From the NCBI GenBank assembly GCA_030650095.1, contig JAUSEE010000062.1, positions 1 through 62,160 on the forward strand: a DNA stretch of 62,160 bases, given 5' to 3'. The notes beneath the pieces are model-generated. The model was not told where the DNA came from. It did no database searches and worked only from the letters and a program-made list of their open reading frames with translations. Made by a program: the position numbers and the translations under genes. The DNA comes from Candidatus Buchananbacteria bacterium (lineage in GTDB: Bacteria > Patescibacteriota > Patescibacteriia > 2-01-FULL-39-33). Positions 2 to 55,221 of the stretch are shown one piece after another; the stretch's first letter is position 1, and the number at the start of each line of letters is the position of its first letter.

Positions 2-847
2 GTTTTAGATGCCAGTAGCGGATCAGGCGCCAAACTGGCTGATTATTTTTTTGTCCGGCTTAACTCCAAAATAATAAAAATGAATTTTAAAGCCGGTGAC
101 AAGTTTACAGATCACGGCCCTAATCCCATATTGCCGCAAAACCAAAAGCCGGCTATTTTAACAGTCAAAAAAAATAAAGCGGATATGGGCGTGATTTTTG
201 ACGGCGACGGGGACAGATGTATCTTTATTGATGAAAGAGGTGAATTTGTCCATCCTTATTATATGAATTGCCTCTTATCGGAATTAATCTTAAAAAAATA
301 TAAAAAGACAGCCATAGCCATGGACGCCAGACTAAGAATAGGCTTAAGTGAGACAATTAAAAAAGCCCAGGGCCAGCCTGTAGTGTGCCGTTCCGGCTAT
401 GCCAACTTAGTAAAATTAATGCAAGAGCAAAAGATTCTGTTTGGCTGTGAAAATTCCGGACATTATTTTTTCAACTTTAAAATCATTGATAAAAAAAGCA
501 ACTACATCTTTGGCGATGCGCTCATGCCCATATTGCTTGTCTTGGGCCATCTAAAAGAAAATAACATTCACCTGTCCGAGGCTACGGCTAAATTTAAAAA
601 ACAATATTTTATTTCCGGGGAAATAAATTACAAGGGAGTTAGTTTCTCCAGCTTAGAAAAAAAATTAGCCCGAAAATATTCCAGCTACAAAAGCGACGAT
701 CTTGACGGCTTATCCATTTACAGCCCGGATTGGTTTTTAAACATCCGTCCCTCTAAAACAGAGCCTCTTATCAGATTGAATATGGAAGCTAAAAATAAAA
801 GCGCACTCAGCCAAATAAAAAAAGAAGTGACTTCTCTCTTAAAATAA
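2..847 (+). CDS. Phosphoglucomutase/phosphomannomutase family protein, 5'-truncated by the window edge
   Basis: The frame is open from nt 2, with no stop before the listed Met at 80. Contains the Mg-binding loop GVIFDGDGDRCIF, the sugar-binding-like GCENSGHYFF and the phosphate-binding-like RPSKTEPLIRL. Confidence 0.85.
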   Translation, partial: VLDASSGSGAKLADYFFVRLNSKIIKMNFKAGDKFTDHGPNPILPQNQKPAILTVKKNKADMGVIFDGDGDRCIFIDERGEFVHPYYMNCLLSELILKKYKKTAIAMDARLRIGLSETIKKAQGQPVVCRSGYANLVKLMQEQKILFGCENSGHYFFNFKIIDKKSNYIFGDALMPILLVLGHLKENNIHLSEATAKFKKQYFISGEINYKGVSFSSLEKKLARKYSSYKSDDLDGLSIYSPDWFLNIRPSKTEPLIRLNMEAKNKSALSQIKKEVTSLLK

Positions 848-850
848 AAA

Positions 851-882
851 ACCGGAAATTGATATTTCCGGTCTATTTTTTT
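851..882 (+). terminator. Intrinsic terminator after the PGM/PMM gene; overlaps the 3' end of the convergent plsC
   Basis: Hairpin accggaaat-tgat-atttccggt followed by a T-run. Confidence 0.6.
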
Positions 883-1580
883 AATCCCTCCGAAGCTTGT
901 GATAAGACTTCCTGTAATTTAATTCTCACCTGCTCAGAAATAAGTTTGATTGATTCGCTTCTGCTTTCATTTGAAAGATCTTTAATTTTAATCGGCTGGC
1001 CGATAACTATGACTACTCGCTTGAATAATTTAGGAAACCGGCTGCCAATGGGCAGAATATCTTCCACGCCTCTTATGGCGACCGGCAACACAATGCCTTG
1101 CGCATGATAGGCTAAAACAATCGCGCCCCGACGCCAGGTATTTAATTTGCCGGATTTGGGCTGGCGGCTTCTGCCACCTTCGGGAAAAATCATCATGGAG
1201 CCGTCTTGCAATTTATCAATCAAGAGATCAAACTTCTCGATAAAATCGCCGCTGCCCCGATTGATGGGGATGCACTTGGATAAATCGCACAAAAGCGTTA
1301 AGAACCAATTCTTCTTCATGAAATTGCCTTCCTCCGGCAAATGCCAAGGAATCAAAGACGGCCGTATCATGGCCTTGGGCCAATAAATAGCTAAAGCCAG
1401 AAACCAGCTATCAATCACTGTCAGGTGATTGGCTACAATCAGGCAATTTTTCTGCCAAGGAATATTTTTCTTGCCAATGATGATGGTCCTATTTAGGATA
1501 TGGCAAAAGCACCAGAAAACTACACCGGTTAAAAACAAAATAACATAAGAAGCCACGGCCCTAAACTTGGAATAAATCAT
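873..1580 (-). CDS. plsC: 1-acyl-sn-glycerol-3-phosphate acyltransferase family protein
   Basis: N-terminal TM segment, HxxxxD acyltransferase motif (ANHLTVIDSW) and FPEGGRS motif. Confidence 0.8.
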   Translation of the reverse strand: MIYSKFRAVASYVILFLTGVVFWCFCHILNRTIIIGKKNIPWQKNCLIVANHLTVIDSWFLALAIYWPKAMIRPSLIPWHLPEEGNFMKKNWFLTLLCDLSKCIPINRGSGDFIEKFDLLIDKLQDGSMMIFPEGGRSRQPKSGKLNTWRRGAIVLAYHAQGIVLPVAIRGVEDILPIGSRFPKLFKRVVIVIGQPIKIKDLSNESRSESIKLISEQVRIKLQEVLSQASEGLKK

Positions 1581-2567: not shown

Positions 2568-2601
2568 AATAAGTGACTTATTATAAAGCCTTGATTTAAT
2601 A

Positions 2602-2840
2602 AACCCGACCCCGCTCTAAAGAGCGGGGTACCCGCCTGCCTACGCCTACCTTAATTTATTAATTAAGGTATTGGGTTTGCGTAAAACTAATTTGTTTTTA
2701 AGAAAAAATAGGGACGGCAATGGCGGGCAGGTCTGGGCGGTTTCAAATGGAAGGTGTCGGCTCCGCCGACGTATTTTTCCTCACACTGCCCTTCATCCCC
2801 TGGCTTAAAAGCCAGGGGTATTCGGGCAGCAACATTATAA
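2602..2840 (+). repeat. Structured repeat family, copy A (forward orientation, carries a ~101-nt internal insertion at 2631-2731)
   Basis: Shares aacccgaccccgctctaaagagcgggg ... ggcggtttcaaatggaaggtgtcggctccgccgac ... ctgcccttcatcccctggcttaaaagccagggg ... gggcagcaacattataaa with copies B-E. Confidence 0.85.
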
Positions 2841-3121: not shown

Positions 3122-3243
3122 TCAAATGGCATTTATCAACAGAAAAACCGCCCATGTTCTTGATATAATTATAGTTTTAAAGTATAATTGATTGTAAAAG
3201 TTCCTTGAAAAGACTTTATTAATTAATAAAAAGATAAAAAGAA

Positions 3244-3633
3244 ATGAAAATTTCTGCCTTACGCTTGCTTTACAGAAAGCAACAGGCGTGGGGACTGACA
3301 GCAAGTATTGACTTGTCTGGATGCGACCATGAACTCATTCAATCGCCGAAAGCGATAAAACATTTCGTAACAGAAATGATTACTTCGATTAACATGAAAA
3401 CCCATGGCCCAATGCACTTGGAAAGATTTGCCGAGGGACATTTGGAAGGTTATTCAGTAATGCAATTTCTGGAGACGTCGTCTCTAACAATTCACTTTGA
3501 TCATATGATCAAAGACCGGGCTTTTATTGATATTTTTAGCTGTAAGTTTTTCGACCCGATCAAAGCCGAGAAATTTTCCAAGGAGTATTTCAAAGCTAAA
3601 AAAGCCAGAACCAAAACACTCATCCGTTATTAA
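3244..3633 (+). CDS. S-adenosylmethionine decarboxylase-like (SpeH/class 1 pyruvoyl enzyme family) protein
   Basis: Small size (129 aa). LETSSLTIHFD resembles the E-S self-cleavage site followed by the IHT motif of class 1 AdoMetDC. Assigned by motif resemblance only. Confidence 0.55.
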   Translation: MKISALRLLYRKQQAWGLTASIDLSGCDHELIQSPKAIKHFVTEMITSINMKTHGPMHLERFAEGHLEGYSVMQFLETSSLTIHFDHMIKDRAFIDIFSCKFFDPIKAEKFSKEYFKAKKARTKTLIRY

Positions 3634-14678: not shown

Positions 14679-15929
14679 ATGAGCAGAAAAGTCAGAGAGA
14701 TCGTAACTCGTTTCCCTAATTTGGAATGCGGTTTTTTGGCCGGGCTTCTCGCCTATTGCGAGAGGGTCCGCCGGCATCTGGAAATCACTACCGGCAGATT
14801 GTTGTGGGATTTTATCTCCACGGCTAAAAAAATTGACAGCCCTGATGAAGACCCGGAAGTGGTTTATTTCAATGTGGGCCGCGGACACTTTGATCAGCAT
14901 GGCAAACCGGAAAATGAATCTCTGTGTAAATTATGCTCGCTGGATTTGATCCGTGACTCCTACGATTTCCTGGTGGGTCGGCCTTGGCTTCGGGACATTT
15001 TTGGATTAGTCCGCGCCAACGATATTCGTGGCGAGAGAATCTCCAGCCACCCTTTCAATCTGCGCGAGTTGATGACCGCCCTCTCCTATAACTACAAAGA
15101 TAATCCTCAATTGGTTTTGGATTGGCTGTCGCTGGCTTTCTGCGGCGTCTTTGAAGGCTGTAAAGCCGGCATACCAATCAAAAAGATTTTCAACCCGGAA
15201 GAAATGATCAAAGGAGTGGCTCTTCACTCGCCCCCGGAATTGGAATGGTTTGAAGAATTGCTCCAAGAAGCGATTTCCACCGTTAAACGGCATAACTCGT
15301 GGGCCCAGAAAGCGGTGAGGGCAGCGGAAGTCCGCGGTCGGAACGCTACCGTTTATGTGCCGTCGCTTAAGAGCGATATTAAGGTGATAGAAGTTTTCTG
15401 CGATTCTTTCAAGACTGGCGCGGCTGGACGCCAAGCCGGTTACCAAATTGTGATTCAGTGGAACAAAGACGGCCACTGCCAAATCCACGGCGGCCATATT
15501 AAAATTGAAGAGACGGTGGATATACAAACTATGAATGTTGAACAATTCTTAGAAAGAACCAGGGCCGGCGAATCTGGCGACGAGATTTTTAAAACCAGAA
15601 TAACCAAGAAGTGGGCACACATGGGCGAAGTCGCCAAACAGTTGCGCTTTTTGGAAGCCAAGTTCCGCGGCCGCAAAATAAAAGAGGGCCAGGATTGGAC
15701 CAAAAGCGGCATAATTATCTTCGCCGAAAACGACACCCCTATACCCTGGTATCTGGCAGAGTTTTTAACCAGCCTGTACAACGGCACCATGAGTTCTGCA
15801 GATATTCCGCCCACTGCCATTGGCCGAAAAAAGCTTTTTGAGGCGGTGTGCAAGTCCTTGCCCAAATGCCTGGCGGTTATCCAGGTAGGTAGTAACGAGA
15901 GAGAAGTAGTCGGACTGGCCAGAGTCTGA
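14679..15929 (+). CDS. Hypothetical protein, 416 aa, orphan
   Basis: Long ORF with SD aaaggag 8 nt upstream. Visibly more G+C-rich codons than its neighbours. I recognise no family; it contains the motif FNVGRGHFDQHG. Confidence 0.7.
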   Translation: MSRKVREIVTRFPNLECGFLAGLLAYCERVRRHLEITTGRLLWDFISTAKKIDSPDEDPEVVYFNVGRGHFDQHGKPENESLCKLCSLDLIRDSYDFLVGRPWLRDIFGLVRANDIRGERISSHPFNLRELMTALSYNYKDNPQLVLDWLSLAFCGVFEGCKAGIPIKKIFNPEEMIKGVALHSPPELEWFEELLQEAISTVKRHNSWAQKAVRAAEVRGRNATVYVPSLKSDIKVIEVFCDSFKTGAAGRQAGYQIVIQWNKDGHCQIHGGHIKIEETVDIQTMNVEQFLERTRAGESGDEIFKTRITKKWAHMGEVAKQLRFLEAKFRGRKIKEGQDWTKSGIIIFAENDTPIPWYLAEFLTSLYNGTMSSADIPPTAIGRKKLFEAVCKSLPKCLAVIQVGSNEREVVGLARV

Positions 15930-22366: not shown

Positions 22367-22443
22367 AAAAGTTAATTAAGAAAAGAAGAAAGCAATAAAA
22401 TAACAAATTAAGACAATGGAAAACCAAGATGCTTTCTTATTTT

Positions 22444-22584
22444 TTATAATGTTGCTGCCCGAATACCCCTGGCTTTTAAGCCAGGGGATGAAGGGCAGTG
22501 TGAGAAGAAATATGTCGGCGGAGCCAACACCCTCCATTTGAAACCGCCCAGATACCCCGCTCTTTAGAGCGGGGTCGGGTTCAT
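22444..22584 (-). repeat. Structured repeat family, copy B (forward orientation on the minus strand)
   Basis: Full-length copy between the ftsK stop and the rodZ-like start. Carries substitutions that keep base pairing (see findings). Confidence 0.85.
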
Positions 22585-22601
22585 TTTTATTACTTTCTTA
22601 T

Positions 22602-25247
22602 TTAGGTCCATTCGTCTTCAGAAAAAACCTTTTTCTTTTTCGTTTCCGGCTTTTCGTCTTCTGTTTCAGTCTCATCTTCGTCTTCTATATCCTCTGGCTT
22701 ATCGTTATCTTTTTGATCATCGTCGTCACTTTCTTCAGCTTCATTTTCTTCTTCTGTCGCTGCTACTTCTTCCGTTACTTCTTCTGCCTCATCTTCACCG
22801 GTAATATCATTAATTTCCTCCTCTGATTCGCTTATTTCACTGTTATCTTCAGCTTCATCTAAATCATTTTTGCCGGATAAATCTTCTTCGCTACTGTCAT
22901 CCAAATCTTCGTCTTCGTCTTCTTCATCATCATAAAAACTATCATTTTGATTTTGTTCCAAGGGCCTTAACTCACCGGTTAAATCATGCTCGCGCGAGGC
23001 GAATTTAAGCGGATCAACTCCGCCCAATTTATCCAAAAAAACTTCTCTGGGCTTAGCGCCGTCAGGCGGGCCGATTACTCCTTGTTCCTCCAGCAAGTCC
23101 AATATTCTGGCCGCTCTGGCATAACCTATTTTTAATCTTCTCTGCAGTAGAGAAGCCGAGGCTTTGCCCGATTCCCTGATAATTTCTTTGGTCTCTCCTA
23201 AAAGGGCGTCGCCGCTGTCATTATAAAATCCTTTGCCGTCACTGCTGGAATAGCCAGACTGCCTTTCCACCACTTCCTCAATATAATCCGCTGGGCCCTG
23301 CTGCTTGATATAGTTTATTATATTGTGTGTTTCCCGGTCTGAAATAAATACACCCTGGATTCTTTTGGGCTTGCTGGTTTCCGGCCCGATATAAAGCATA
23401 TCGCCCCGGCCGACTAATTTTTCCGCTCCGGAGGTATCTAAGATTGTCCTGGAATCAATAAGCGAGGCCACGGAAAAAGCAATGCGAGCCGGAATATTGG
23501 CTTTAATCAAGCCGGTAATAACTTCCACCGATGGCCTTTGCGTGGCTAAAATCAAATGGATGCCAACGGCTCTGGACATTTGAGCCAATCTGATAATGCC
23601 GGCTTCCACGTCGTTGGCGGCCGTAGACATTAAATCGGCCAACTCATCAATGATAAAAATAATGTAGGGCAATTTATCAGAAGCGTTTCTATTATAAGCG
23701 GCGATATTCCTTTTACCGGCTCTGGATAAAATATCAAAGCGCCTTTCCATTTCCACGGTTGTCCATTTAAGAGCATTGATTGTTTTTTTAACATCAGTTA
23801 TAACCGGCGTTAAAAGATAAGGAATGCCATTGTAAACAGGCAGTTCTACTCGTTTGGGATCAACTAAAATAAATTTAAGTTCATCTGGACTGTTCTGATA
23901 AAGCAAGCTGGTGATAATGGAATTGATGCAAACTGATTTGCCGCTGCCGGTAGCGCCGGCTATTAAAAGATGAGGCATCCTGTCCAATTGGACCAGGTAA
24001 GGCTTGCCACTGACATCTTTGCCTAACACCATCATCAAATTGCTTTCCCGATTTTTAAACTGCGATCCGGCTAATATCTCGTTCATCGTAACCTTAGCCG
24101 CCATTTGATTGGGAATTTCTACACCCACCAGTGATCGGCCGGGTATGGGCGCTTCTATCCTAATGGGATGGGCCGCTAAAGCCAAGGCTAAATCGCTGTT
24201 TAAATTTATGATTTTGGATAATTTAACGCCATCGGCCGGACGAAAAGTATATTGGGTGACAGTCGGACCAATATTGACATCAGCCATATCAACTTCAATG
24301 CCAAAATTAGACAAGGTTTTTTTTATAATCTGCTGATTGGATTTAATATCACCGCTCGTGGGCTTGCCTGATTTGCTCACCAGTAACTCCAAGGGCAATT
24401 CTATTTTTTTGCCGAACTTTTTCGGTTTGATTATTTTAGAATCTTCTTCATCGTCAGCCTCCGATAAGCTGACGGCTTTTTTTTCAAATTGAGGCTCGGT
24501 ATAATCTTTGTCTGGTGTTTGATCTTCTTCTTTGGCTAGACTTTCATCTTCGGCTTCAATTTCATCTTCGTCTTCGTCTTCTTCTTCCTCGTAACCATTT
24601 GGCTCACGCTTATGCTGTTGGACTAAAGTGGAAATCTTATTGTAAATAAACTTAAATAATTTCACCGGCCACATCAAGCCATAAAGAGAAGTTTCAAAAG
24701 TTAAAAGCAAGCCGATGATAAAGACAGCCAAACAAACAACCAGAGTGCCCCAGAAACCCATAAGTTTCAAAAGAGGCCAAGACAAAATCAAGCCGCTATA
24801 ACCGCCGCCCAAACCCTGGCCGGCCGCGAAAACCGAGTTTTTTATATCAAACTGCAAATGCCATAAAGCTGTCAGCCCCAAAACTAAAAATACCGTTCCG
24901 GCATAATTTACTACCTTTATGCCATAGCTGTCTGAGCGGAGCATGAAATAAGCAAAAAGCAAGGCGACGACAGGGAAAAGCCATTTTAAAGCGCCCAACA
25001 TCCAAGAAATAATTTTAACTACCACTTGGCCGAAAGCGCCTGATAAATCAAAAAGGCCTAAAAAACTCAAGGCTGCTAAAACAAATAAAAAAATGATGAT
25101 AATGCCTTTTTTGGTTTCGTTGGATATGCTCCAATCCATGCCGAAACCACCCTCTGTGGACCTGGGGGTGGGATAATGCCTGTTTCTTATTTTCTTTCTG
25201 TTGAGTAATTTTTTTAAGACGGTATTGTTGCGGCGACGATAAGCCAT
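22602..25247 (-). CDS. ftsK: DNA translocase FtsK/SpoIIIE with a long acidic C-terminal tail
   Basis: N-terminal TM helices, Walker A GATGSGKS, gamma winged-helix LLQRRLKIGYARAARILDLLEEQGVIG, then about 170 aa rich in D/E. Confidence 0.93.
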   Translation of the reverse strand: MAYRRRNNTVLKKLLNRKKIRNRHYPTPRSTEGGFGMDWSISNETKKGIIIIFLFVLAALSFLGLFDLSGAFGQVVVKIISWMLGALKWLFPVVALLFAYFMLRSDSYGIKVVNYAGTVFLVLGLTALWHLQFDIKNSVFAAGQGLGGGYSGLILSWPLLKLMGFWGTLVVCLAVFIIGLLLTFETSLYGLMWPVKLFKFIYNKISTLVQQHKREPNGYEEEEDEDEDEIEAEDESLAKEEDQTPDKDYTEPQFEKKAVSLSEADDEEDSKIIKPKKFGKKIELPLELLVSKSGKPTSGDIKSNQQIIKKTLSNFGIEVDMADVNIGPTVTQYTFRPADGVKLSKIINLNSDLALALAAHPIRIEAPIPGRSLVGVEIPNQMAAKVTMNEILAGSQFKNRESNLMMVLGKDVSGKPYLVQLDRMPHLLIAGATGSGKSVCINSIITSLLYQNSPDELKFILVDPKRVELPVYNGIPYLLTPVITDVKKTINALKWTTVEMERRFDILSRAGKRNIAAYNRNASDKLPYIIFIIDELADLMSTAANDVEAGIIRLAQMSRAVGIHLILATQRPSVEVITGLIKANIPARIAFSVASLIDSRTILDTSGAEKLVGRGDMLYIGPETSKPKRIQGVFISDRETHNIINYIKQQGPADYIEEVVERQSGYSSSDGKGFYNDSGDALLGETKEIIRESGKASASLLQRRLKIGYARAARILDLLEEQGVIGPPDGAKPREVFLDKLGGVDPLKFASREHDLTGELRPLEQNQNDSFYDDEEDEDEDLDDSSEEDLSGKNDLDEAEDNSEISESEEEINDITGEDEAEEVTEEVAATEEENEAEESDDDDQKDNDKPEDIEDEDETETEDEKPETKKKKVFSEDEWT

Positions 25248-25343: not shown

Positions 25344-28300
25344 TTAAATTACTGGTTCGGTAACAGGAGCCGGCTCTGGCGCAGGAGCTGGTGCCGGATC
25401 TGGTTCCGGTGTTGGTATTGGCTCTGGTGCTGGAGCCGGATCTGGTTCAGGCGCCGGCTCTGGTTCTGGAGCCGGTGTCGGTTCCGGTTCAGGCGTTGGA
25501 TTAGGCTCTGGTTCTGACGCTGGATTAGAATTTGGTTCCGGATTTGAAACAACCGGGTTGTAAGTACAGGAGCCGTCGTTTTCGGTGGCCGAGAGGTTAT
25601 AATTGTTAGCGCTTGGATCGGTACAACCCATAACGGCGCTGTCTCCGGCAACTTGTGGGGTAGGAGTATTTTCAATGGTTCCTTGGACGGCTAAAGATAG
25701 CCAATCAAAGGAGATGTCTTTATTAATGGTCGGGCTCATATTCAATCTGAAACCTTTGGCAGTTTTATCAGAAATCCAATAATTCTTGCTTTCCAAATTA
25801 TCAAGAGGCGTAACCACGATTCTAGGAGTGCCTAAATATTCAGTGGCAAAAATAATTTCTGTGCTGGTGGCAAAAGCGGGAATGGTAATGCCGCCAGCCT
25901 GATCCTTATTAACATAAATTTTGCCTTTGACATCTATATCGTTTTGGAAAGACACTTTAACCGCAAAATTAGCTTCGCCTAAAACAGTGATCGTGCCATA
26001 GAAAGTGGCGGCTTCTCTAACTACAAGTTCATCTTGCGTTTGATAATTGTTGTTCACAGCCAACAGGCCTACTTGGGCATCCAATTCCTTGACGGCGGCC
26101 ATAGTGATGCCGATCCAATCCATTGAATTTATTCCTTGATCTTCGCCAATATCGAAATATTGATTGATGTAATCCACGAAGGGAGAAATGTGCCGTCTCT
26201 GATCGTCGGCGTATCTATTTGCTCCATCGACTACTTCATTCTTATACTGCCACTCATAAAGTGGCATAGCCCGCAATTTCTCAAGATAGCCGACGGGTTG
26301 AGTCCAATTATCCTTATACCAACTGTATGAAGGAGCATCTGTCCAAACTCCAGCCGTAGTCAAGCGAGCGCTAGAATCGTCCCAAATTGGCCAAGTGGTA
26401 CCGGTAGTGCCAATGCTTATGCCGTAACCTGTTTGCGAGGCAAGTCCGAATCCAACCACACCCGATGTGTTTAATGTTGTAACTCCGCTAACAGCTCCAC
26501 TAGTCACATCCCAACTGCTGCTATTTATATTCACTATATCTCCTCCATCACCGATAGTCAGTGTGGAATTTGTCGTCCATGTGCCATTAACAGTGTTGCT
26601 TGATAGTGTTCCGCCACTGACAGTAATAGTATCATCAACTTCAGCATTAGAAACAACAGAGCTTCCTGCAACTAAATTTGACGCTGTCAAAGTATCAGAA
26701 ACTTGAGCATCAGCTATTTCTCCCGTTGAAAAAAAGCTAGTGGCACTATCGCCCGTTAAAGCGGCACCTGCTTCGGCATCACCAGCGGCGTAATTATTTG
26801 TTGTGTCGGTGCCTAATGCCACGGAGTTGAGGGCAATAGTAGCGACAACCGAACCAGGACCGGAAGCAGTAACATCGCCAGTCAAGGCAGTAATATAATT
26901 TCCCGTGGCTTGTTTGGCATTTAATTGTGTTTGAATGGCCGAAGTGACACCATCGACATAATTCAACTCCGTGCCGGTCGGCAAGACTGAAACTCCGCCG
27001 AGAGTAAAGGGGGTGGCCATAGTAAATGTTCCATCAACGCTTAAAGTTCCGCCATAATGTCCGTTGCCTTTGGTGAATAATCCAGAAGTGGAAGACGCCC
27101 AACCCCCAACTGTTAAATTACCAGAAGTGGTGGCGTTCCTGCCTACATACAAATCACCAGCGCCAATGGTAGAGCCAAAGGTACTAATGACATCTGTAGT
27201 ACCAATATTGAGCCAGTTGGAAGTGGTGGCAGTGTTGACCACGAGATTAGTGATAGTGGAAGAAGCCGTGTTAACCAAGATGCCTCTGGTGGAAGTAGGA
27301 GATAGAGCCGTCGCATCAAAGGCGTACCAAGCGCCGGATTGACCGCCAGTAACCGTCAGAGCCCCGCCTGATATAGTCAAACCTAAACCAGTCAGATCAG
27401 TAAAGTATTCGCTGTTAACACCCAGGCCGGTGGTGTAGAAATTAGTGGTAGTGGCACTACCATCAATAGTCAAGTTGCCTCCGTAGTGACCAGAACCTTG
27501 AGTAAAGAGTCCCAGAGTGGTGGACGCCCAACCTAGAACAGTTAAGTTGCCTGAAGTGGTGGCGTTTCGTCCCACATACAAATCTCCTGCTCCAATGGTA
27601 GAGCCAAAGGTACTAATGACATCAGTCGTGCCGATATTAAGCCAACCCGAGGAAGTGGCGTTGCCATCAACACTTAAACTGCCTCCATAGTGACCAGAAC
27701 TTTGGGTAAAGAGTCCTAAAGTTGTGGAGGCGTAGCCGCCAAAAATACCATTATTTTGTATATTTAAATTTCCCGCGGAAAATAATGCGTCAGTCGGAGC
27801 CGTGCCAATAGTCAAATACCCCGTTGAAGTGGCGTTGCCGGTATTTGTTAGGCCATTAACATCAAGCATTCCACTCATATTTAAATCATCCGAAAGAGTG
27901 AAATTGCCCTGGCTTACGCCCAACGCGCCGGCATTATTCCAACCGAAACTTTCTCCACCGGCATCGAAATAAATTTTATCATCGTCGGAATTTGAAGTTT
28001 GGCCTATAAATAAATCTTCACCCACATACATGAAATTAGTGGTTGTGGCATTTCTGCCCACATACAAATCTCCTGCTCCAATATTAGCGCCAAAAGTGCT
28101 AATAACATCTGTCGTGCCGATGTTGAGCCAGTTGGAAGTGGTAGCGGTATTGACGACGAGATTAGTAATGGTGGAAGAAGCCGTGTTGACTAAGATGCCT
28201 CTGGTGGAAGTAGGAGATAGAGCCGTAGCGTCAAAGGCATACCAAGCGCCGGAAGCGCCAATATTGGCTACAGTCAAAGCGCCTCCGCTGATAGCTAAAC

Positions 28301-30791
28301 CGCTGCCAGTTAGATCGGTAAAGTATTCACTGTTAACGCCCAGGCCGGTAGTGTAGAAATTAGTGGTCGTGGCGCTGCCATCAATAGTCAAGTTGCCGCC
28401 GTAGTGGCCATTGCCTTGAGTGAAGAGTCCCAGAGTAGAAGAAGCCCAACCTAGAACAGTTAAGTTGCCTGAAGTGGTGGCATTCCTGCCTACATACAAA
28501 TCCCCTGCTCCAATAGTAGAGCCAAGCAGTCCAAAGACATCAGTGGTGCCAATATTGAGCCAGTTAGAAGTGGTAGCATTGCCATCAATACTTAAATTGC
28601 CCCCATAGTGGCCACTACCTTGGGTAAAGAGTCCCAGAGTGGTGGAAGCGAAACCCAGACCATATAAATGTTCCGTTGTAGTCGCGCTACCATCAATTCT
28701 TAGACCGCCTTGGAATAAAGCAGATGTGGTAGCAGTAGAAACAACATGCAGAGTATAAGCCGGGCTATCCGTTCCGATGCCAACTCTGCCGCCGCTTGTC
28801 GGTTGCAAAAGAATTTTTCCAACTTCAACTGATCCAGCTCCACCCTCTAACACAACATTGCCCCCGGTGCCCGTAACCAGAGAGCCCTGTCCGCCGGCTC
28901 CACCGGTAATCGTTATAGCTCCGCCAGTACCGCCAAATCCGCCACCGCCAGTGCCATCGCCACCTAAGCCACCAGTGAGATTGATCGCACCGCCAATATT
29001 GCCAGTAAGCGCAGTTCCTCCTTTTCCTCCTGTTACAGTTAAGACTGATAAAGCGTCTGCTCCAGCACCGGCATTTGAACCCACAACATGCAACTTGGCC
29101 GCCGGAGTCGTTGTTCCAACTCCAACACTGTCAGTATCAGCCTGAACCACTAGAGTACTGGTGTCTACGGTTAGATTGCCACTAGTTGTAGCATTTCGTC
29201 CCACATACAAATCGCCAGCGCCAATAGTAGAGCCAAAGGTGGCAATGACATCAGTGGTACCAATATTGAGCCAGTTAGAAGTGGTAGCATTGCCATCAAT
29301 ACTTAAATTGCCCCCGTAGTGGCCACTACCTTGGGTAAAGAGTCCCAGAGTGGTGGAAGCATAACCTCCAAAAATACCATTATTTTGTACGTTCAAGTTT
29401 CCTGCGGAAAATAATGCGTCAGTCGGAGCTGTGCCAATAGTCAAATACCCCGTTGAAGTGGTGTTACCGTTTAAAACAGTATCGCCTTGGACATTTAAAG
29501 TGGTGGTGCTGTTGGTGATAGCTCCGCCTAAGGCTATCATGCCTAAGATATACATGTTTTGAGTTGTGGTGGCATTGCCCTGGACATAAAGCTTGGTAGT
29601 AGAGGCTGTGCCATCGTTGGTAATGGTGAAGTATCTGGTGCCGGCAAAGTAAGCGGAGTTGTCAATGACTTCCAAGTAGTTACCAGTGCCATTTTGGGAG
29701 ATAGTGAGGGCGGTTGAAGAAGTGACGCTTAAGTTCTTGTTGGACTCAATCCAGACGCTGCCTTTCATATGCGTCCAATCAGAATTGGCCATATCGCCTA
29801 GATAAGAATTGTTTTCTACAGTTAAAGTAGAGATAGTGGAAACACCTACGCTTTGGGTGCCAGAGAGAGTGAGGTTGTTGGCAAAGACATCCCCTTCGGC
29901 ATCAACTAAGAATTTAACACTGTCAGCTACAGCTAATCCTAAAAGATTAGAATCCCCCACAGCTGAAGCTGGGTTGATGTAGATAGAAGCGTTGTCGGCG
30001 TTAGCATTAGTTGTGCCCGGAGACCAAGAGCCGAAGGAATGAGGCAGGGTGGGTGAATTGGTGGAAATGGTAATGCCGTTGATGTAGAGGTTGCCGTCTA
30101 TTTCCGCGTCATTAGCTACGTAGAGTTCGCCGGAGGAGAAATTCAAATGATTAACCGTGCCTGCTCCTACCATCAAATAGCTGGTAGTAGTAGCTTGGGT
30201 GATGCTTAATCCTTTGCTGCTATCCAAAGCTAGAATCTGTCCGGCGGTGGCGGTGGTGGTGGCATGCAAGCCGTCAACCGTATCGGAGTTGAAAGCGTAA
30301 GGCGAAGAAGTGATTCTTTTTCGAGGCGTGAAAGTTTCTTCAAAACCACCATCGCTATTGGCATCAAATTTAACAGAGAGGAAAAGAGAATTAGAATTGA
30401 AATCGACAGTAGAAAGCGAAGTGGAAGTGCCCAGGTTAACCGAGAAGATGCCCCGAGTTATGCTCACAGCGCCGGGAGTGGTAGTGGCGGTCCAAGTTTC
30501 TTCCCAAAGCAGGGTGCCTGAGGTGACATCATCATAGAGTTGGAATTGAAAGCCGTAACTGCCGGTGGTGACCGAGAGACCGGAAGAGTTGGCTATTTTG
30601 CCTTGATAAGTTATTTGTTGGTTGATGCCTAGGGCGGCTTGGGTAGTAGAAACTGCAGACAAATCAAAGACTATCCAAGCCGCTGCTAAAATCGGCACGA
30701 CAAGCAAAATTAAAACCAGCACAAGATTAGTAGAGAAAAATCTATTTTTCAATTTCATGAGGTGGCTGAATTGTTTTAAAAATTTAATCAT
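25344..30791 (-). CDS. Giant repetitive surface protein, 1815 aa (N-terminal TM/signal anchor, Gly/Thr/Asn-rich repeats, tail-fibre chaperone-like domain, Cys-bracketed module, Pro-rich tail)
   Basis: Single uninterrupted ORF. Repeated blocks such as GYASTTLGLFTQGSGHYGGNLSIDGNATTSNWLNIGTTDV..GAGDLYVGRNATTSGNLTV. C-terminal PEPEPTPAPEPEP tail. Confidence 0.85.
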   Translation of the reverse strand: MIKFLKQFSHLMKLKNRFFSTNLVLVLILLVVPILAAAWIVFDLSAVSTTQAALGINQQITYQGKIANSSGLSVTTGSYGFQFQLYDDVTSGTLLWEETWTATTTPGAVSITRGIFSVNLGTSTSLSTVDFNSNSLFLSVKFDANSDGGFEETFTPRKRITSSPYAFNSDTVDGLHATTTATAGQILALDSSKGLSITQATTTSYLMVGAGTVNHLNFSSGELYVANDAEIDGNLYINGITISTNSPTLPHSFGSWSPGTTNANADNASIYINPASAVGDSNLLGLAVADSVKFLVDAEGDVFANNLTLSGTQSVGVSTISTLTVENNSYLGDMANSDWTHMKGSVWIESNKNLSVTSSTALTISQNGTGNYLEVIDNSAYFAGTRYFTITNDGTASTTKLYVQGNATTTQNMYILGMIALGGAITNSTTTLNVQGDTVLNGNTTSTGYLTIGTAPTDALFSAGNLNVQNNGIFGGYASTTLGLFTQGSGHYGGNLSIDGNATTSNWLNIGTTDVIATFGSTIGAGDLYVGRNATTSGNLTVDTSTLVVQADTDSVGVGTTTPAAKLHVVGSNAGAGADALSVLTVTGGKGGTALTGNIGGAINLTGGLGGDGTGGGGFGGTGGAITITGGAGGQGSLVTGTGGNVVLEGGAGSVEVGKILLQPTSGGRVGIGTDSPAYTLHVVSTATTSALFQGGLRIDGSATTTEHLYGLGFASTTLGLFTQGSGHYGGNLSIDGNATTSNWLNIGTTDVFGLLGSTIGAGDLYVGRNATTSGNLTVLGWASSTLGLFTQGNGHYGGNLTIDGSATTTNFYTTGLGVNSEYFTDLTGSGLAISGGALTVANIGASGAWYAFDATALSPTSTRGILVNTASSTITNLVVNTATTSNWLNIGTTDVISTFGANIGAGDLYVGRNATTTNFMYVGEDLFIGQTSNSDDDKIYFDAGGESFGWNNAGALGVSQGNFTLSDDLNMSGMLDVNGLTNTGNATSTGYLTIGTAPTDALFSAGNLNIQNNGIFGGYASTTLGLFTQSSGHYGGSLSVDGNATSSGWLNIGTTDVISTFGSTIGAGDLYVGRNATTSGNLTVLGWASTTLGLFTQGSGHYGGNLTIDGSATTTNFYTTGLGVNSEYFTDLTGLGLTISGGALTVTGGQSGAWYAFDATALSPTSTRGILVNTASSTITNLVVNTATTSNWLNIGTTDVISTFGSTIGAGDLYVGRNATTSGNLTVGGWASSTSGLFTKGNGHYGGTLSVDGTFTMATPFTLGGVSVLPTGTELNYVDGVTSAIQTQLNAKQATGNYITALTGDVTASGPGSVVATIALNSVALGTDTTNNYAAGDAEAGAALTGDSATSFFSTGEIADAQVSDTLTASNLVAGSSVVSNAEVDDTITVSGGTLSSNTVNGTWTTNSTLTIGDGGDIVNINSSSWDVTSGAVSGVTTLNTSGVVGFGLASQTGYGISIGTTGTTWPIWDDSSARLTTAGVWTDAPSYSWYKDNWTQPVGYLEKLRAMPLYEWQYKNEVVDGANRYADDQRRHISPFVDYINQYFDIGEDQGINSMDWIGITMAAVKELDAQVGLLAVNNNYQTQDELVVREAATFYGTITVLGEANFAVKVSFQNDIDVKGKIYVNKDQAGGITIPAFATSTEIIFATEYLGTPRIVVTPLDNLESKNYWISDKTAKGFRLNMSPTINKDISFDWLSLAVQGTIENTPTPQVAGDSAVMGCTDPSANNYNLSATENDGSCTYNPVVSNPEPNSNPASEPEPNPTPEPEPTPAPEPEPAPEPDPAPAPEPIPTPEPDPAPAPAPEPAPVTEPVI

Positions 30792-31653: not shown

Positions 31654-34434
31654 TTAACCAAACTTACTCTCTGATTCTTGTTTGTTAATAACAGTTGCTT
31701 CAGTCTGTTCCACAACTGGAGACTCTGGCTTATCCCCTGTTTGGTTTATGGTATTAGTAGTAGAAATCATATCATCTTCAGAAGATGGGGGCGGAGTTTC
31801 AGTAGAATCATCTGGCGGTGATTGATTGCTAACACTTTTTTCGGCTTCTTGTTTTAATTTGTCAGCTATTTCAGCCAGAGGTGATTTTTCTGCGCTGATT
31901 GTTTCCTCCGAAGTTGGATTAATAACCTCCTCTTTCTCTTCTATTTTTATTTCATCAATATTTTCCACTGGCGCATTACTATCTCCTTTAGAAATATTAT
32001 TTTCCAGCTGATTACTTTCTGGCGCGCTAGGTATCGGCTCCAGCTTAATATCTTGGCCAATGACTTCTTCTGATTTTTTATGAGTCAAATCAATATTCTC
32101 GGTCTTAGCTTCGCTATAGCCATCTTTGGCAGCTGAAATGTAATAGATATTATTGCCGGCCAAAAATCCATAGCGACCATGCCTATCGGTAACTTGAGCT
32201 TCAAGCATCTTATTGTATTCGGGCGAATAAATTTTAGCCACTGTGCCGGAAATAGGCTTGCCTGTTTTAGCATCTAGCACAATACCCCACCTATTAACTT
32301 TCTCTCTGGCCACCAACCTTCTAAACAAGAGATACAGTATTATATGAATAACGGCGAAAGAAGCCATAAGTACACTGGGGAAAATAGCAAAAGAAACCAA
32401 GGCGAAAATCGGGCCGGCCAAGCTGATATTTTTTTGGATAATATACCGGAAATTTTTTCTCCTAACTTCTTGATCTGATATTTTGGCATCCGGCGGATCA
32501 ACTGGGATGTTGGCGGTAATAATTCCCTTTTGATCCTTGGTGATTGATATTAGCTCACCATGGTAGATATTGGTGAACTGCCTGTCCTCTGATGAATCTT
32601 TTAAAATATCAGAGGGGAACACCATGCTTTGCTTAACCACTTCCAAAATATAATCGCCTTCCGAAACTAAGAAATTATATCGCCCCTCTCTATCGGTAAC
32701 TCTGGATTTTAATAATCTGCCTGTTGTTTTGTCGTATAATCTGATAACGGCCAAATCAATCGGTTTTTTGGTAATGGAATTGTAAACCACACCCCAGCCT
32801 TTTTTCTTGCGCCTAAAAAACCAAGCCAGCGGTTCGGTAAACAAATATTGCATGTAATTGATAAAGCCCCACCAAGGAATAGCTATAAAAGCGCTGATAG
32901 TGGCTAGGCTGGCTACAAAAGGGGCGGTATATTGGTTTACTTTTTCCACCACTGGATTATCTAATATATCCTTGATAATTTTTAAAATCTGTTCCAATAA
33001 GGTTAGGCCGATATCCTGATTGATGATGTTATTTCTAACATTAAATAATCTGCCATCATATATCTTTTGGCCATTGTCAAAGACAACTAATTTATACCTG
33101 CCGTTTTCCACCATAAAACCGTAAGTCCCATCCGGATTTATCTTGCTTAGCTGTATTATTAATTTATTATTTTCATTATACAGTAAAACCGAGATGCCAA
33201 AAATCCTGGTTTTATCTTCTGGCAATTTGGAAAAGACATGGCCCAGTGGATGAACGGTGATTATTATATTTTTTTCTTGGACTGAATTATCGGCATAGAC
33301 AACCGATAATTTAACATAATTCTTGCCCAGGGTATTAAATCTGTTTAATTGAAGCAAGTATTGATTTGAACTGGTGTCATAGGTAAAAGGCCATGTCTCT
33401 CCGCCGCTAACGGCCGTAATTTGTTTAACCTCTTTGGGAAAATTATTAGGTACTAAAATCAATAATTCATGGCTGATTAAAAGATCAATATTGTCATTTA
33501 GCAAAAACAACTGCAGGCCGTTATTATTGGTAAAAAAATAATAGTTCGGTCCTACCAATCCGCCTGTCGGAACAGTAGGCACAGAATAGACACAGGTGCC
33601 GTTGTTTACGGAAGCGCTGGAATCATAATTTAAAGCTCTGCTGTCGGTACAACCAAAAACCGGATAAGTGCAACTGCCATTGTCTATGGTCGCTTGAGGA
33701 TTGTAGTTTAAAGCCGAGCCATCGGTACAGCCGGGAATATCATTGGGGTCATAAGAACAGGTGCCATTATCCACATTGGCCTGAGGATTATAATTGACAG
33801 CCGTCGGATCGGTACAGCCCGAGACAATGCAAGAGCCATTATCGCTGGTGGCTTGGGGGTTATAATTACCAGCCAAGGGATTAGTACAGCCGGAAATTAG
33901 ACAACTGCCATCATCAATAGTGGCCTGAGGATTATAATTATCAGCCAAGGGATTAGTGCAGCCGGCTAGCTGATAAATACAACTACCATCATCAATAGTG
34001 GCCTGGGAATCATAATTTATAGCTGTCGGATCCATACAACCAGAGTTTATATACTCACAAGAACCGTCATCCTGGTTGGCTGATGGGTTATAATTGACAG
34101 CAATTTGATCGGTGCAGCCTAAAACAACCGGCTGGCAAGAACCATCATCAATAGTGGCGCTAGGATTATAATTGACAGCCGTGGGATCGGTACAGCCATA
34201 GACATCATAGATGCAAGAACCGTCATCAATAGTAGCGCTAGAATTATAATTTAGAGCCAAAGGATCGGTACAACCGTAAACAGGAACTGGAGGTGGAGGT
34301 GGCGGTGGGGGCGGAGGAGGATTACCACCAGAAATTCTAGCATTGATATTTACATCGGCCGCCGACACAAAAGAAACGGCTGAAACCGCTAGAAAAAATA
34401 TTAAGCCAATTATAAGTAATTTCTTAGAGAGCAT
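31654..34434 (-). CDS. Large surface/membrane protein, 926 aa (signal peptide, poly-Pro, 9 tandem Cys-bracketed modules, TM segments, two carboxypeptidase-regulatory-like domains, acidic S/T-rich tail)
   Basis: Nine copies of GCTDPxAxNYNxxAxxDDGSCxY. Two segments match the CarboxypepD_reg pattern (VIRLYDKTTGRLLKSRVTDREGRYNF; AKIYSPEYNKMLEAQVTDRHGRYGF). Confidence 0.8.
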   Translation of the reverse strand: MLSKKLLIIGLIFFLAVSAVSFVSAADVNINARISGGNPPPPPPPPPPPVPVYGCTDPLALNYNSSATIDDGSCIYDVYGCTDPTAVNYNPSATIDDGSCQPVVLGCTDQIAVNYNPSANQDDGSCEYINSGCMDPTAINYDSQATIDDGSCIYQLAGCTNPLADNYNPQATIDDGSCLISGCTNPLAGNYNPQATSDNGSCIVSGCTDPTAVNYNPQANVDNGTCSYDPNDIPGCTDGSALNYNPQATIDNGSCTYPVFGCTDSRALNYDSSASVNNGTCVYSVPTVPTGGLVGPNYYFFTNNNGLQLFLLNDNIDLLISHELLILVPNNFPKEVKQITAVSGGETWPFTYDTSSNQYLLQLNRFNTLGKNYVKLSVVYADNSVQEKNIIITVHPLGHVFSKLPEDKTRIFGISVLLYNENNKLIIQLSKINPDGTYGFMVENGRYKLVVFDNGQKIYDGRLFNVRNNIINQDIGLTLLEQILKIIKDILDNPVVEKVNQYTAPFVASLATISAFIAIPWWGFINYMQYLFTEPLAWFFRRKKKGWGVVYNSITKKPIDLAVIRLYDKTTGRLLKSRVTDREGRYNFLVSEGDYILEVVKQSMVFPSDILKDSSEDRQFTNIYHGELISITKDQKGIITANIPVDPPDAKISDQEVRRKNFRYIIQKNISLAGPIFALVSFAIFPSVLMASFAVIHIILYLLFRRLVAREKVNRWGIVLDAKTGKPISGTVAKIYSPEYNKMLEAQVTDRHGRYGFLAGNNIYYISAAKDGYSEAKTENIDLTHKKSEEVIGQDIKLEPIPSAPESNQLENNISKGDSNAPVENIDEIKIEEKEEVINPTSEETISAEKSPLAEIADKLKQEAEKSVSNQSPPDDSTETPPPSSEDDMISTTNTINQTGDKPESPVVEQTEATVINKQESESKFG

Positions 34435-46516: not shown

Positions 46517-46568
46517 ATGAACCCGACCCCGCTCTAAAGAGCGGGGTATTCGGGCAGCAACATTATAA
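46517..46568 (+). repeat. Structured repeat family, copy C (short form lacking the central ~90 nt)
   Basis: atgaacccgaccccgctctaaagagcggggta joined directly to ttcgggcagcaacattataa. Confidence 0.8.
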
Positions 46569-46574
46569 AAATTA

Positions 46575-49873: not shown

Positions 49874-50065
49874 ATGAACCAAAAACCTAAGTTAATAGAC
49901 CCGGAGAAATTAAAAAATGTCTGTAAACTAGGGCTAGCCCAAGAAGAGTGCCACCTTTTACGGCGACTGGTCCACAACGGCTTGATAGTTTGCGCTCATA
50001 AAACCTACGTGGATATCGGTATAATAAAACCCAATTGCCAGAAAATGAACCCGACCCCGCTCTAA
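49874..50065 (+). CDS. Small Cys-containing protein (63 aa) whose last 7 codons and stop lie inside repeat copy D
   Basis: SD aaggag 6 nt upstream of the ATG at 49874. The ORF ends ...KPNCQK-MNPTPL-stop within the repeat. Confidence 0.45.
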   Translation: MNQKPKLIDPEKLKNVCKLGLAQEECHLLRRLVHNGLIVCAHKTYVDIGIIKPNCQKMNPTPL

Positions 50066-50185
50066 AGAACGGGGTATCTGGGCGGTTTCAAATGGAAGGT
50101 GTCGGCTCCGCCGACGTATTTTTTCTCACACTGCCCTTCATCCCCTGGCTTAAAAGCCAGGGGATGAAGGGCAGCAACATTATAA
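50045..50185 (+). repeat. Structured repeat family, copy D (reference copy, with a perfect 19-bp terminal hairpin)
   Basis: Full-length copy followed directly by an intrinsic terminator. Confidence 0.85.
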
Positions 50186-50191
50186 ACAGCC

Positions 50192-50220: not shown

Positions 50221-50439
50221 ATTTATTAAAAACCTATAAAAAACATACCCCCAGCTGGAGGCTGGGGTATCTGTTTGACCCACTAGGCGGGCTAGTAGCT
50301 CACAATTATAGTAATAGAGTGGAATGAAAAAATAGGATATATTACTCCTCCCCTTTCCAAGGGGAGGCCGGGAAGGGGTTTTTGAGGCATCAGTATAAAC
50401 CTCCCCTTGACCCCTCCTTAAAAAGGAGGGGAAATAAAA

Positions 50440-54893: not shown

Positions 54894-54897
54894 ATTT

Positions 54898-55038
54898 TTA
54901 TAATGTTGCTGCCCGAGTACCACTGGCTTTTAAGCCAGGGGATGAAGGGCAGTGTGAGGAAAAATACGTCGGCGGAGCCGACACCTTCCATTTGAAACCG
55001 CCCAGATACCCCGCTCTTTAGAGCGGGGGCGGGTTCAT
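54898..55038 (-). repeat. Structured repeat family, copy E (forward orientation on the minus strand, 4 nt upstream of the ileS ATG)
   Basis: Full-length copy. Its 3' end ...gcagcaacattataaaaat abuts the ileS start codon. Confidence 0.85.
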
Positions 55039-55221
55039 TATCTATTATATCACAGTTATTATGGCATTTTTTGATTCACCCTGTTAAATAAGATTTAAAT
55101 ATATTTAAATCTTATTTTTAAATTTTAGTTGTTTAAAAATTAAATCTTTTAAACGATGGAATATAAACGAAATGCTTATATTCGTATTATATAAAATTTA
55201 AAAATTATTAAACAGGGCAAA

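Follow-up and report, generated by a model that had tools for sequence, protein, structure and literature searches.

A 137-nt intergenic repeat of a Candidatus Buchananbacteria bacterium is very probably a non-autonomous IS200/IS605-type mobile element

We analyzed a 62,160-nt contig of a Candidatus Buchananbacteria bacterium (JAUSEE010000062.1; this whole stretch is referred to below as the window), in which an initial annotation had described positions 22490-22545 as an element that works as RNA in a single orientation. These positions are the middle of a 137-nt repeat that is very probably a non-autonomous element of the IS200/IS605 type, known as a palindrome-associated transposable element (PATE), and they belong to the center of one of its copies. 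The repeat holds no open reading frame (ORF), lacks terminal inverted repeats, carries two palindromes on the same strand (the left hairpin lying 18 nt in from the left end and the right hairpin 10 nt in from the right end), is inserted at TTTAT without target duplication, and ends in a motif related to its target; together, these features mark its termini as those of IS200/IS605 elements and the whole as a PATE. Elements of this kind are already known, and the repeat in the window is a further example, one whose spread in this host, a member of the candidate phyla radiation (CPR), is recent.

The element is described here on the complement of the strand used in the initial annotation, referred to as the top strand (coordinates are in Table 1). 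In this direction, the copy that contains positions 22490-22545 (copy B) reads TTTAT, AATGTTGCTGCCC, GAATA, the left-end hairpin, ATGAA, GGGCAG, the central hairpin, CCCAGATA, the right-end hairpin CCCCGCTC-TTTA-GAGCGGGG, and the tail TCGGGTTCAT. The element begins with AATGTTGC on the left and ends with GGGTTCAT on the right, and these ends do not form inverted repeats. The left-end and right-end hairpins are similar and lie in direct orientation, each with RATA 5' of it on the same strand. The terminal motif TTCAT differs from the target motif TTTAT (TAM) at position 3 (C/T), and the base found 4 nt upstream (5') of the foot of each hairpin is A at the left end and G at the right end (GAATA versus AGATA). 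TTTAT can pair with GAATA and TTCAT with AGATA, and in the window and in a sister family described below (two subfamilies only) the T/C difference covaries with the A/G difference.

A 29-mer from the start of the repeat in the orientation of the initial annotation (AACCCGACCCCGCTCTAAAGAGCGGGGTA) matched the window five times at up to three mismatches, with 0 matches expected, bearing out the repeat and its five copies as labeled there (A to E). These copies are about 94% identical across unrelated loci. They contain no ORF, measure 48 to 137 nt (238 nt where a nested insertion is included), and are all intergenic. Copies A, C, and D and a diverged family member, F, lie on the minus strand, which is G-rich and gene-rich, and copies B and E lie on the other strand. 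The top strand of B and E opposes the flanking genes (the strand of the initial annotation is co-oriented with them), C and D show the reverse arrangement, and A lies between divergent genes; occurrence in both orientations relative to genes fits a mobile insertion and not a cis-regulatory RNA. The only other contig of the same strain, 2.7 kb long (L134; Logan SRR13727527) and found through the helix-turn-helix (HTH) protein adjoining copy B, starts inside copy B (its positions 1-26; GGGTATTCGGGCAGCAACATTATAAAAAA...), and such an assembly break at the repeat is indirect evidence for many genomic copies.

Three comparisons of filled and empty sites, all written on the top strand, document mobility. 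At copy D, the window reads GCTGTTTAT, then the element (AATGTTGC...GGGTTCAT), then TTTCTGGCAATT; the closest relative, L143, has GTATTTAT directly followed by GTTTGGCAATT, with no duplication. In L141, L142, and L135, no copy E separates the promoter-like boxes from the ATG of ileS. For the sister family, L058 reads GATATTTAT, then AACAGC...GGATGTCAT, then AAATCTT, and two loci with 98% identical flanks (L103 and L055) read GATATTTAT directly followed by AAATCTT. There is no target duplication, the junction being ambiguous by just 2 nt (AT), and a model built from five full copies (R1) identified no copy in the syntenic loci L135-L143. TTTAT is also present in the empty sites, and among the matches listed it is invariant at 44 of 44 sister-family sites (first T, 42 of 44), while further positions and the other flank vary. 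Together, the empty sites in relatives and the invariant 5' TTTAT show precise insertion 3' of TTTAT without duplication. Across 53 sites, the top strand is co-oriented with neighboring genes in 32 cases versus 15 (by crude ORF calling), the direction expected if insertion favors the lagging-strand template.

The wider family was found by scanning metagenomes with the right-end hairpin (hairpin 1), which returned at least 120 loci. Among the matches listed, one locus (L079) holds a diverged window-type copy, and most hold a sister family of 106 to 139 nt with the same plan as the window element: ATGACATCCT, a hairpin identical to hairpin 1 of the window, and, further on, TTCATCTCC, a second hairpin, GGAGTGTTCTTGAATGCTGTT, and ATAAA. 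This second hairpin occurs in fully compensated versions (GCAG..CTGC, GCAA..TTGC, GGTG..CACC, and CGAC..GTCG). In metagenome contigs, sister-family copies are inserted at no fewer than 44 different TTTAT sites, and identical 108-nt elements are found at 16 and 12 sites among the matches listed, pointing to recent bursts of copying. Its members end in GTCAT, the window type in TTCAT (TTTAT in copy A), and its two ends (ATGACATCCT... and ...GAATGCTGTT) form no terminal inverted repeats. A scan of genome contigs with the 3' tail GGGCAGCAACATTATAAA gave 13 single matches in unrelated phyla, which is chance level, and these (L001-L013) were discarded; a hairpin pattern scan of viral contigs gave 0 matches. 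In the sister-family locus L024 (1-5254), three copies alternate with fragments of a 16S rRNA gene and with near-threshold matches to group I introns, and one copy (3241-3349) lies inside such an intron match (3165-3528). In another sister-family locus, L034 (~227-1390, reverse strand), a Mutator-family transposase gene stands directly beside a copy with a truncated left end, which suggests that another insertion sequence inserted into the PATE.

The base pairs on which the initial annotation relied are all present: GGAA/UUCC in copies A and E, GGAA/UUUC in D, GGAG/CUUC and GUUGG/CCGAC in B, and a U-G pair in the stem of the copy A insertion; GGGCGG is also able to pair with CUGCCC. We aligned copies A (insertion removed), B, D, and E with L079 and tested a structure of five helices, namely, hairpin 1, the 4-bp helix, the central hairpin, and the base and top of hairpin 3. 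These main helices are 98.7% paired across the five aligned copies. Five pairs have changed on both sides, compared with 1.3 ± 0.9 in shuffles (0 of 500 reached 5), and sliding the helix partners by 1 to 3 columns lowers pairing to 37 to 51%. The compensatory changes and these controls show that the helices are real and beyond chance, in agreement with the initial annotation. The 4-bp helix that it singled out has changed from A-U to G-C in copy B and from G-C to A-U in L079, and L079 has further compensatory changes in the left-end outer stem and in the hairpin.

What the helices say about strand and molecule is a separate matter. On the strand of the initial annotation, 159 cells comprise 153 Watson-Crick pairs, 4 G-U pairs, and 2 mismatches; on the opposite strand, they comprise 153, 1, and 5, respectively. 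The claim that every wobble favors one strand thus stands as a 4:1 tendency (3:1 if B and D share one event), and the split is not significant. Two cases run counter to the claim: hairpin 1 of copy D (GCTC/GAAC) has C.A on the strand of the initial annotation and G.U on its complement, giving this right-end hairpin a T.G on the top strand, and the stem of the copy A insertion has one U.G and one C.A, so that both strands are equally good. All wobble counts use hand-checked cases only, an automated count on a MAFFT alignment of the sister family being confounded by loop-length misalignment. Selection on RNA rather than on single-stranded DNA does not follow from the wobbles either, since G.T is equally tolerated in the single-stranded DNA hairpins bound by Y1 transposases. 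We accept that the element is intrinsically single-strand specific, but a G-U asymmetry from few copies can neither separate RNA from single-stranded DNA function nor reliably pick a strand. The proposed pair of mutually exclusive folds is not supported: the alternative pairing GGGCGG/CUGCCC has 0 covarying pairs, and the sole informative change (C to G in L079) breaks it yet is compensated in CTGCCC/GGGCAG.

The active strand is most likely the complement of the transcript favored in the initial annotation, which reads AACCCGACCCC to CAUUAUAAA, and four lines of evidence converge on this. The target TTTAT lies 5' of the element on the complement. On this strand, hairpin 1 is CCCCGCTC-TTTA-GAGCGGGG, and in the sister family the loop of the left hairpin is TTTA or TTCA. 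The "RE-like tetraloop" described for sotRNA, HgcC, and PATE-derived RNA (PMC4615843) consists of a GC-rich 8-bp stem close to the 3' end, capped by UUUA or UUCA; the window element has CCCCGCUC-UUUA-GAGCGGGG, 10 nt from the top-strand 3' end. L089 and L035 each have a tnpB gene, confirmed by Pfam (OrfB_IS605 and Cas12f1-like_TNB), whose sense 3' end is overlapped by a hairpin identical to the right-end hairpin of copy B. Finally, nine Rfam HgcC matches are all on the top strand, including five in the sister family (28 to 31 bits), L079 (21.9 bits), and copies B (22.9 bits) and E (19.4 bits), as is a match to the 3' end of sot0042 (18.9 bits). Because these scores are subthreshold, we use them as similarity consistent with this orientation and not as HgcC membership. 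At gathering thresholds, Rfam identified only a tRNA-Leu across the window, and a T-box in the ileS leader was unsupported by the Rfam search. A tnpB element in L054 (60-1300) has a left-end hairpin, CCCCGTTC-TTTA-GAGCGGGG, that is flanked by GGCGT...ACGCC and nearly identical to hairpin 1; its frame is stopped at ~397, and the gene is likely a pseudogene.

The central hairpin follows a different rule. Its domain is more stable on the strand of the initial annotation than on the other strand (A, −14.4 versus −11.5; B, −13.1 versus −4.6; D, −11.6 versus −9.8; L079, −13.2 versus −11.1 kcal/mol), and on that strand it is followed by a T-rich run kept in A, B, D, E, and L079 and fits a simple terminator consensus scan. 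All five substitutions that distinguish copy B lie in a 32-column central stretch, and all keep bottom-strand pairing. The hairpin is possibly a relic that once terminated a gene, for instance tnpA, carried on the bottom strand and since lost. Some IS605-type elements have tnpA and tnpB in divergent arrangement, and deletion of the core leaves nothing but 3' remnants (PMC3119063). Judged from its sequence, the hairpin may also terminate host transcripts that enter in this direction, for example at copy B after ftsK. A terminator-like hairpin past copy D was considered as evidence for a small RNA (sRNA) gene and rejected, as it is already present at the empty site in L143.

Several observations weigh against assigning the repeat to the IS200/IS605 type. 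Neither tnpA nor tnpB was found within the 62-kb window, including by tblastn with the TnpB of L089, and among 130 loci there is no parent with these ends, nor any left- and right-end pair more than 151 nt apart except unrelated neighbors. The tnpB elements of L089, L054, and L144 share the hairpin type only and not the flanking end sequences, and the TnpB homologs returned by a protein search (L144 and L145) have different ends. The putative pairing of guides with cleavage motifs at both ends is read after IS608 and ISGst2 and is analogical. Rfam scores are below gathering (HgcC, 19 to 31 versus 50 bits; sot0042, 18.9 versus 88 bits), and copy D has no HgcC match. The five full-length sequences of the window subtype make the covariation statistics weak, and the wobbles of the central domain favor the bottom strand in B, D, and L079, which a simple top-strand model does not predict.

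We weighed these points against four other explanations. The model of the initial annotation, a dedicated structured RNA (an sRNA or a switch-like cis-regulatory RNA) transcribed from AACCCGACCCC to CAUUAUAAA with two exclusive folds, draws on the compensatory changes, on the 4 G-U cells versus 1, on a central domain that folds better on its strand in all four lineages, and on copies B and E, in which the proposed strand shares the direction of the flanking genes and would be the one transcribed. We nevertheless regard it as improbable. Copies C and D run antisense to the genes beside them, A sits in a divergent intergenic region, and across the superfamily the proposed strand is more often antisense to neighboring genes; the constant position and orientation relative to regulated genes that characterize a riboswitch are replaced here by all orientations and contexts. 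No covariation backs the alternative fold, which L079 breaks, hairpin 1 of copy D has C.A on the proposed strand, and the terminator downstream of D is ancestral, being present at the empty site in L143, and so lies outside the element. Precise presence and absence, TTTAT targeting, and identical copies at dozens of sites are properties of a mobile element. Host-maintained intrinsic terminators or intergenic palindromes without mobility would account for the terminator-like central hairpin and T-run and for copy B lying 18 nt past the ftsK stop codon, yet the two end hairpins have no T-runs after them, E (before ileS) and A (between divergent genes) occupy 5' regions, C and D are antisense to genes, conservation at unrelated loci is about 94% over all 137 nt, and the elements are absent at orthologous sites; we find this explanation hardly credible.

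Mobility by another enzyme is the remaining question. A repetitive extragenic palindromic (REP)/REPIN-type element moved by a REP-associated tyrosine transposase (RAYT) instead of an IS200/IS605 TnpA would share much of this anatomy, being short, intergenic, hairpin forming, and multicopy; RAYTs are Y1 enzymes related to TnpA, and REPINs have been viewed as the bacterial counterparts of PATEs (PMC4615843). Against it, the palindromes are direct and not inverted, RATA lies 5' of both on one strand, both loops in the sister family are of the UUYA type on one strand, TAM and terminal motif set the boundaries as in IS605 elements, an end hairpin is identical to a tnpB gene 3' end, and no RAYT-like gene lies within the window, which together render the explanation quite improbable. 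A conventional miniature inverted-repeat transposable element (MITE), mobilized by a DDE transposase and duplicating 2 bp (AT/TA) of its target, is suggested by the AT ambiguity at the empty/filled junction and by a weak resemblance to inverted ends (5' ATG..CCCGA..CCCC and 3' GGGG..TCGGG..CAT). We consider it extremely improbable given that terminal inverted repeats are lacking in the sister family (ATGACATCCT... versus ...GAATGCTGTT), the 5-nt TTTAT is invariant on just one flank, and there is no duplication at the copy D empty site.

For an IS200/IS605-type PATE, a mechanism can be proposed. A Y1 TnpA supplied in trans from elsewhere in the genome would excise and insert copies as single-stranded top-strand DNA, recognizing both hairpins, while the GAATA and AGATA guides would pair with TTTAT and TTCAT. 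The top strand, if transcribed, could yield an RNA resembling HgcC and omega-RNA, with the right-end flank as the guide, for a trans-encoded TnpB. The central hairpin would be interior cargo, best formed on the bottom strand and then followed by a U-run. In a bolder version, which we think unlikely, the PATEs of this streamlined genome are more than parasites: top-strand transcripts are orphan omega-RNA guides for a trans-encoded TnpB and home to TTTAT-flanked donor joints, and the bottom-strand central hairpin, located 3' of ftsK (copy B) and in the ileS leader (copy E), is a portable terminator or insulator on which the host depends; this would explain why the G-U-compatible central pairing is opposite the transposon top strand.

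IS608 of Helicobacter pylori encodes tnpA and tnpB, targets TTAC, uses the guide/cleavage pairs AAAG/TTAC and GAAT/TCAA, and places its hairpins about 19 nt from the left end and about 10 nt from the right end. The window element resembles it in the target 5' of the left end, in its 18- and 10-nt spacing, and in a guide A/G that matches the T/C of the cleavage motif; IS608 differs in carrying tnpA and tnpB, in its target, and in its unrelated hairpin sequences. ISGst2 of Geobacillus stearothermophilus has the TAM TTTAT and the terminal motif TTCAC, and TnpA-dependent excision and TnpB/omega-RNA activity have been shown experimentally for elements of its type (PMC10055086). The TAM is thus the same, and in both cases the terminal motif departs from it at position 3 (TTCAT here, TTCAC there). 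ISGst2 and its PATE-like derivatives also have top-strand subterminal hairpins with adjacent DNA guides, and their mobilization in trans has been proposed; activity shown there by experiment is inferred here from sequence.

The closest counterparts are the PATEs of haloarchaea, such as the HqIRS families of Haloquadratum and VNG_R0052 of Halobacterium (PMC3119063, PMC4615843), in which 52-bp terminal-only forms arise by deletion between the two palindromes and small repeats target the PATE palindromes in Haloquadratum (PMC3119063). Like these, the window family is gene-less, without terminal inverted repeats or target duplication, and has near-terminal palindromes, a short targeting oligonucleotide, a longer end-to-palindrome distance at the 5' than at the 3' end, an 8-bp stem with a UUYA tetraloop, terminal-only forms of about 50 bp (copy C, 48 nt), and nested insertions beside palindromes (copy A). 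It differs in its CPR host, in sequences unrelated beyond the hairpin type, and in its extra GC-rich central hairpin. HgcC (RF00062) and sot0042 (RF02656), the latter representing 3' ends of IS1341-type tnpB transcripts (Rfam), likewise have two hairpins, the first followed by (G)AUGA, and share with the sister family a terminal CCCCGC(C/U)C-UUUA-G(G/A)GCGGGG hairpin followed by AGGAxGUCA. Scores are subthreshold, however, the center of the window element is unaligned, and HgcC is archaeal. REP/REPIN elements with their RAYTs are similar as short intergenic hairpin repeats handled by a single-strand Y1-type enzyme, and differ in forming inverted REP doublets, in contrast to the direct palindromes and the IS605-style boundaries (TAM and terminal motif) found here.

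Reclassifying an apparent structured RNA as a mobile element avoids a false noncoding RNA annotation and explains contig breaks at the repeat. It also indicates that IS200/IS605-derived mini-elements have recently been active in CPR bacteria, whose small genomes are usually thought to be poor in mobile DNA, and some of the copies adjoin essential genes (ileS, ftsK, and a murein ligase). The defined TAM TTTAT, the terminal motif TTCAT, and the minimal 48-nt form provide handles for finding the cognate TnpA and TnpB.

Table 1. Coordinates of the repeat copies and of the parts of copy B in the window
Feature	Position	Strand	Remarks
Copy A, full element with nested 101-nt insertion (2631-2731) beside right-end hairpin	2599..2836	-	TAM 2837-2841; terminal motif mutated to TTTAT
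TTTAT target motif (TAM), directly 5' of copy B	22443..22447	+	Read from sequence; also 5' of all 5 window copies
Copy B, complete 137-nt PATE-like element	22448..22584	+	Inferred top strand (complement of the initial annotation's orientation); R1, 180.9 bits; HgcC match on + strand, 22.9 bits
Left-end structure of copy B	22455..22498	+	Outer stem CTGCCC/GGGCAG; 5x5 internal loop GAATA/ATGAA
Left-end hairpin of copy B	22466-22487	+	CCCCTGGC-TTTTAA-GCCAGGGG
Central domain of copy B	22499..22549	.	Strand unassigned; core of the initial annotation's finding
Central hairpin of copy B	22514-22528		GTCGGC-GGA-GCCAAC; flanking 4-bp helix 22504-22507/22532-22535
Right end of copy B	22550..22584	+	AGATA, hairpin CCCCGCTC-TTTA-GAGCGGGG (22555-22574), tail TCGGGTTCAT ending TTCAT
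Copy C, 48-nt terminal-only form	46517..46564	-	Left-end leader, one hairpin, right-end tail; TAM 46565-46569
Copy D, full element	50045..50181	-	TAM 50182-50186; exact empty site in L143
Copy F, diverged family member	50236..50394	-	Right-end hairpin CCCCAGC-CTCCA-GCTGGGG after AGATA; 3' of a TTTAT; R1, 18.2 bits
Solo end-like hairpin G	50400..50431	-	CCCCTCCT-TTTTA-AGGAGGGG and tail ...GGTTTAT
Copy E, full element between promoter-like TGnTATAAT boxes and ileS ATG	54902..55038	+	TAM 54897-54901; HgcC on + strand, 19.4 bits

Individual copies show further events. The 101-nt insertion in copy A splits the AGATA of the right end and has inverted ends matching at 8 of 10 positions (CCCGCCTGCC and GGCGGGCAGG) and an internal palindrome (CCTTAATTTATTAATTAAGG); no second copy was present in any sequence set examined, and its candidacy as a repeat family was rejected on this ground. 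In copy D (50125-50181), the left-end loop GAATA/ATGAA is replaced, and the whole left end now forms a perfect palindrome of 20 bp, CTGCCCTTCATCCCCTGGC...GCCAGGGGATGAAGGGCAG. The change resembles a template-switch or palindrome-perfecting event and would destroy the putative left guide. Copy F, the solo hairpin G (50236-50431 together), and copy D are stacked within one 680-nt intergenic region, which measures only ~118 nt in L135 and L141 and ~330 nt in L143; the copy F segment is missing from L143. Hairpin G is probably a remnant element end, and F seems to have inserted after the TTTAT that ends the hairpin G tail, suggesting tandem insertion at element ends. On each side of copy B is an 11-mer, CTTTCTTATTT (22433-22443 and 22594-22604), 6 nt before TTTAT and 9 nt past the right end; as it touches neither end, it is not a target duplication and is probably a preexisting AT-rich repeat.

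The neighbors of the copies in the window are housekeeping genes: a TyrRS/TrpRS-type synthetase, AdoMet decarboxylase, ftsK, the HTH protein, recA, a Mur ligase, ruvA, a U32 peptidase, ileS, and argS. The closest named relatives of the flanking proteins are from Candidatus Falkowbacteria and other Patescibacteria, at about 75% amino acid identity. An unannotated ORF of 416 amino acids (14679-15929) was considered as a cryptic TnpB and rejected, having no Pfam match and lacking the CxxC pairs of a zinc ribbon. An AT-rich segment of ~140 nt (~55072-55214), located upstream of the promoter-like boxes of ileS, is absent in L141 and L135, whose sequences there can otherwise be aligned, and matches neither the PATE family nor any Rfam family. 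The ileS gene itself (51447-54887) has a His_Phos_1 domain inserted at about residues 505-682, an architecture shared by its L135 and L141 orthologs. Two large ORFs of 1,815 and 926 amino acids (25344-30791 and 31654-34434) consist of internal repeats whose units measure ~300 nt and 78 nt, with GxGxG-type repeats of 18 to 24 nt at 25364-25531; both likely encode repetitive surface proteins.

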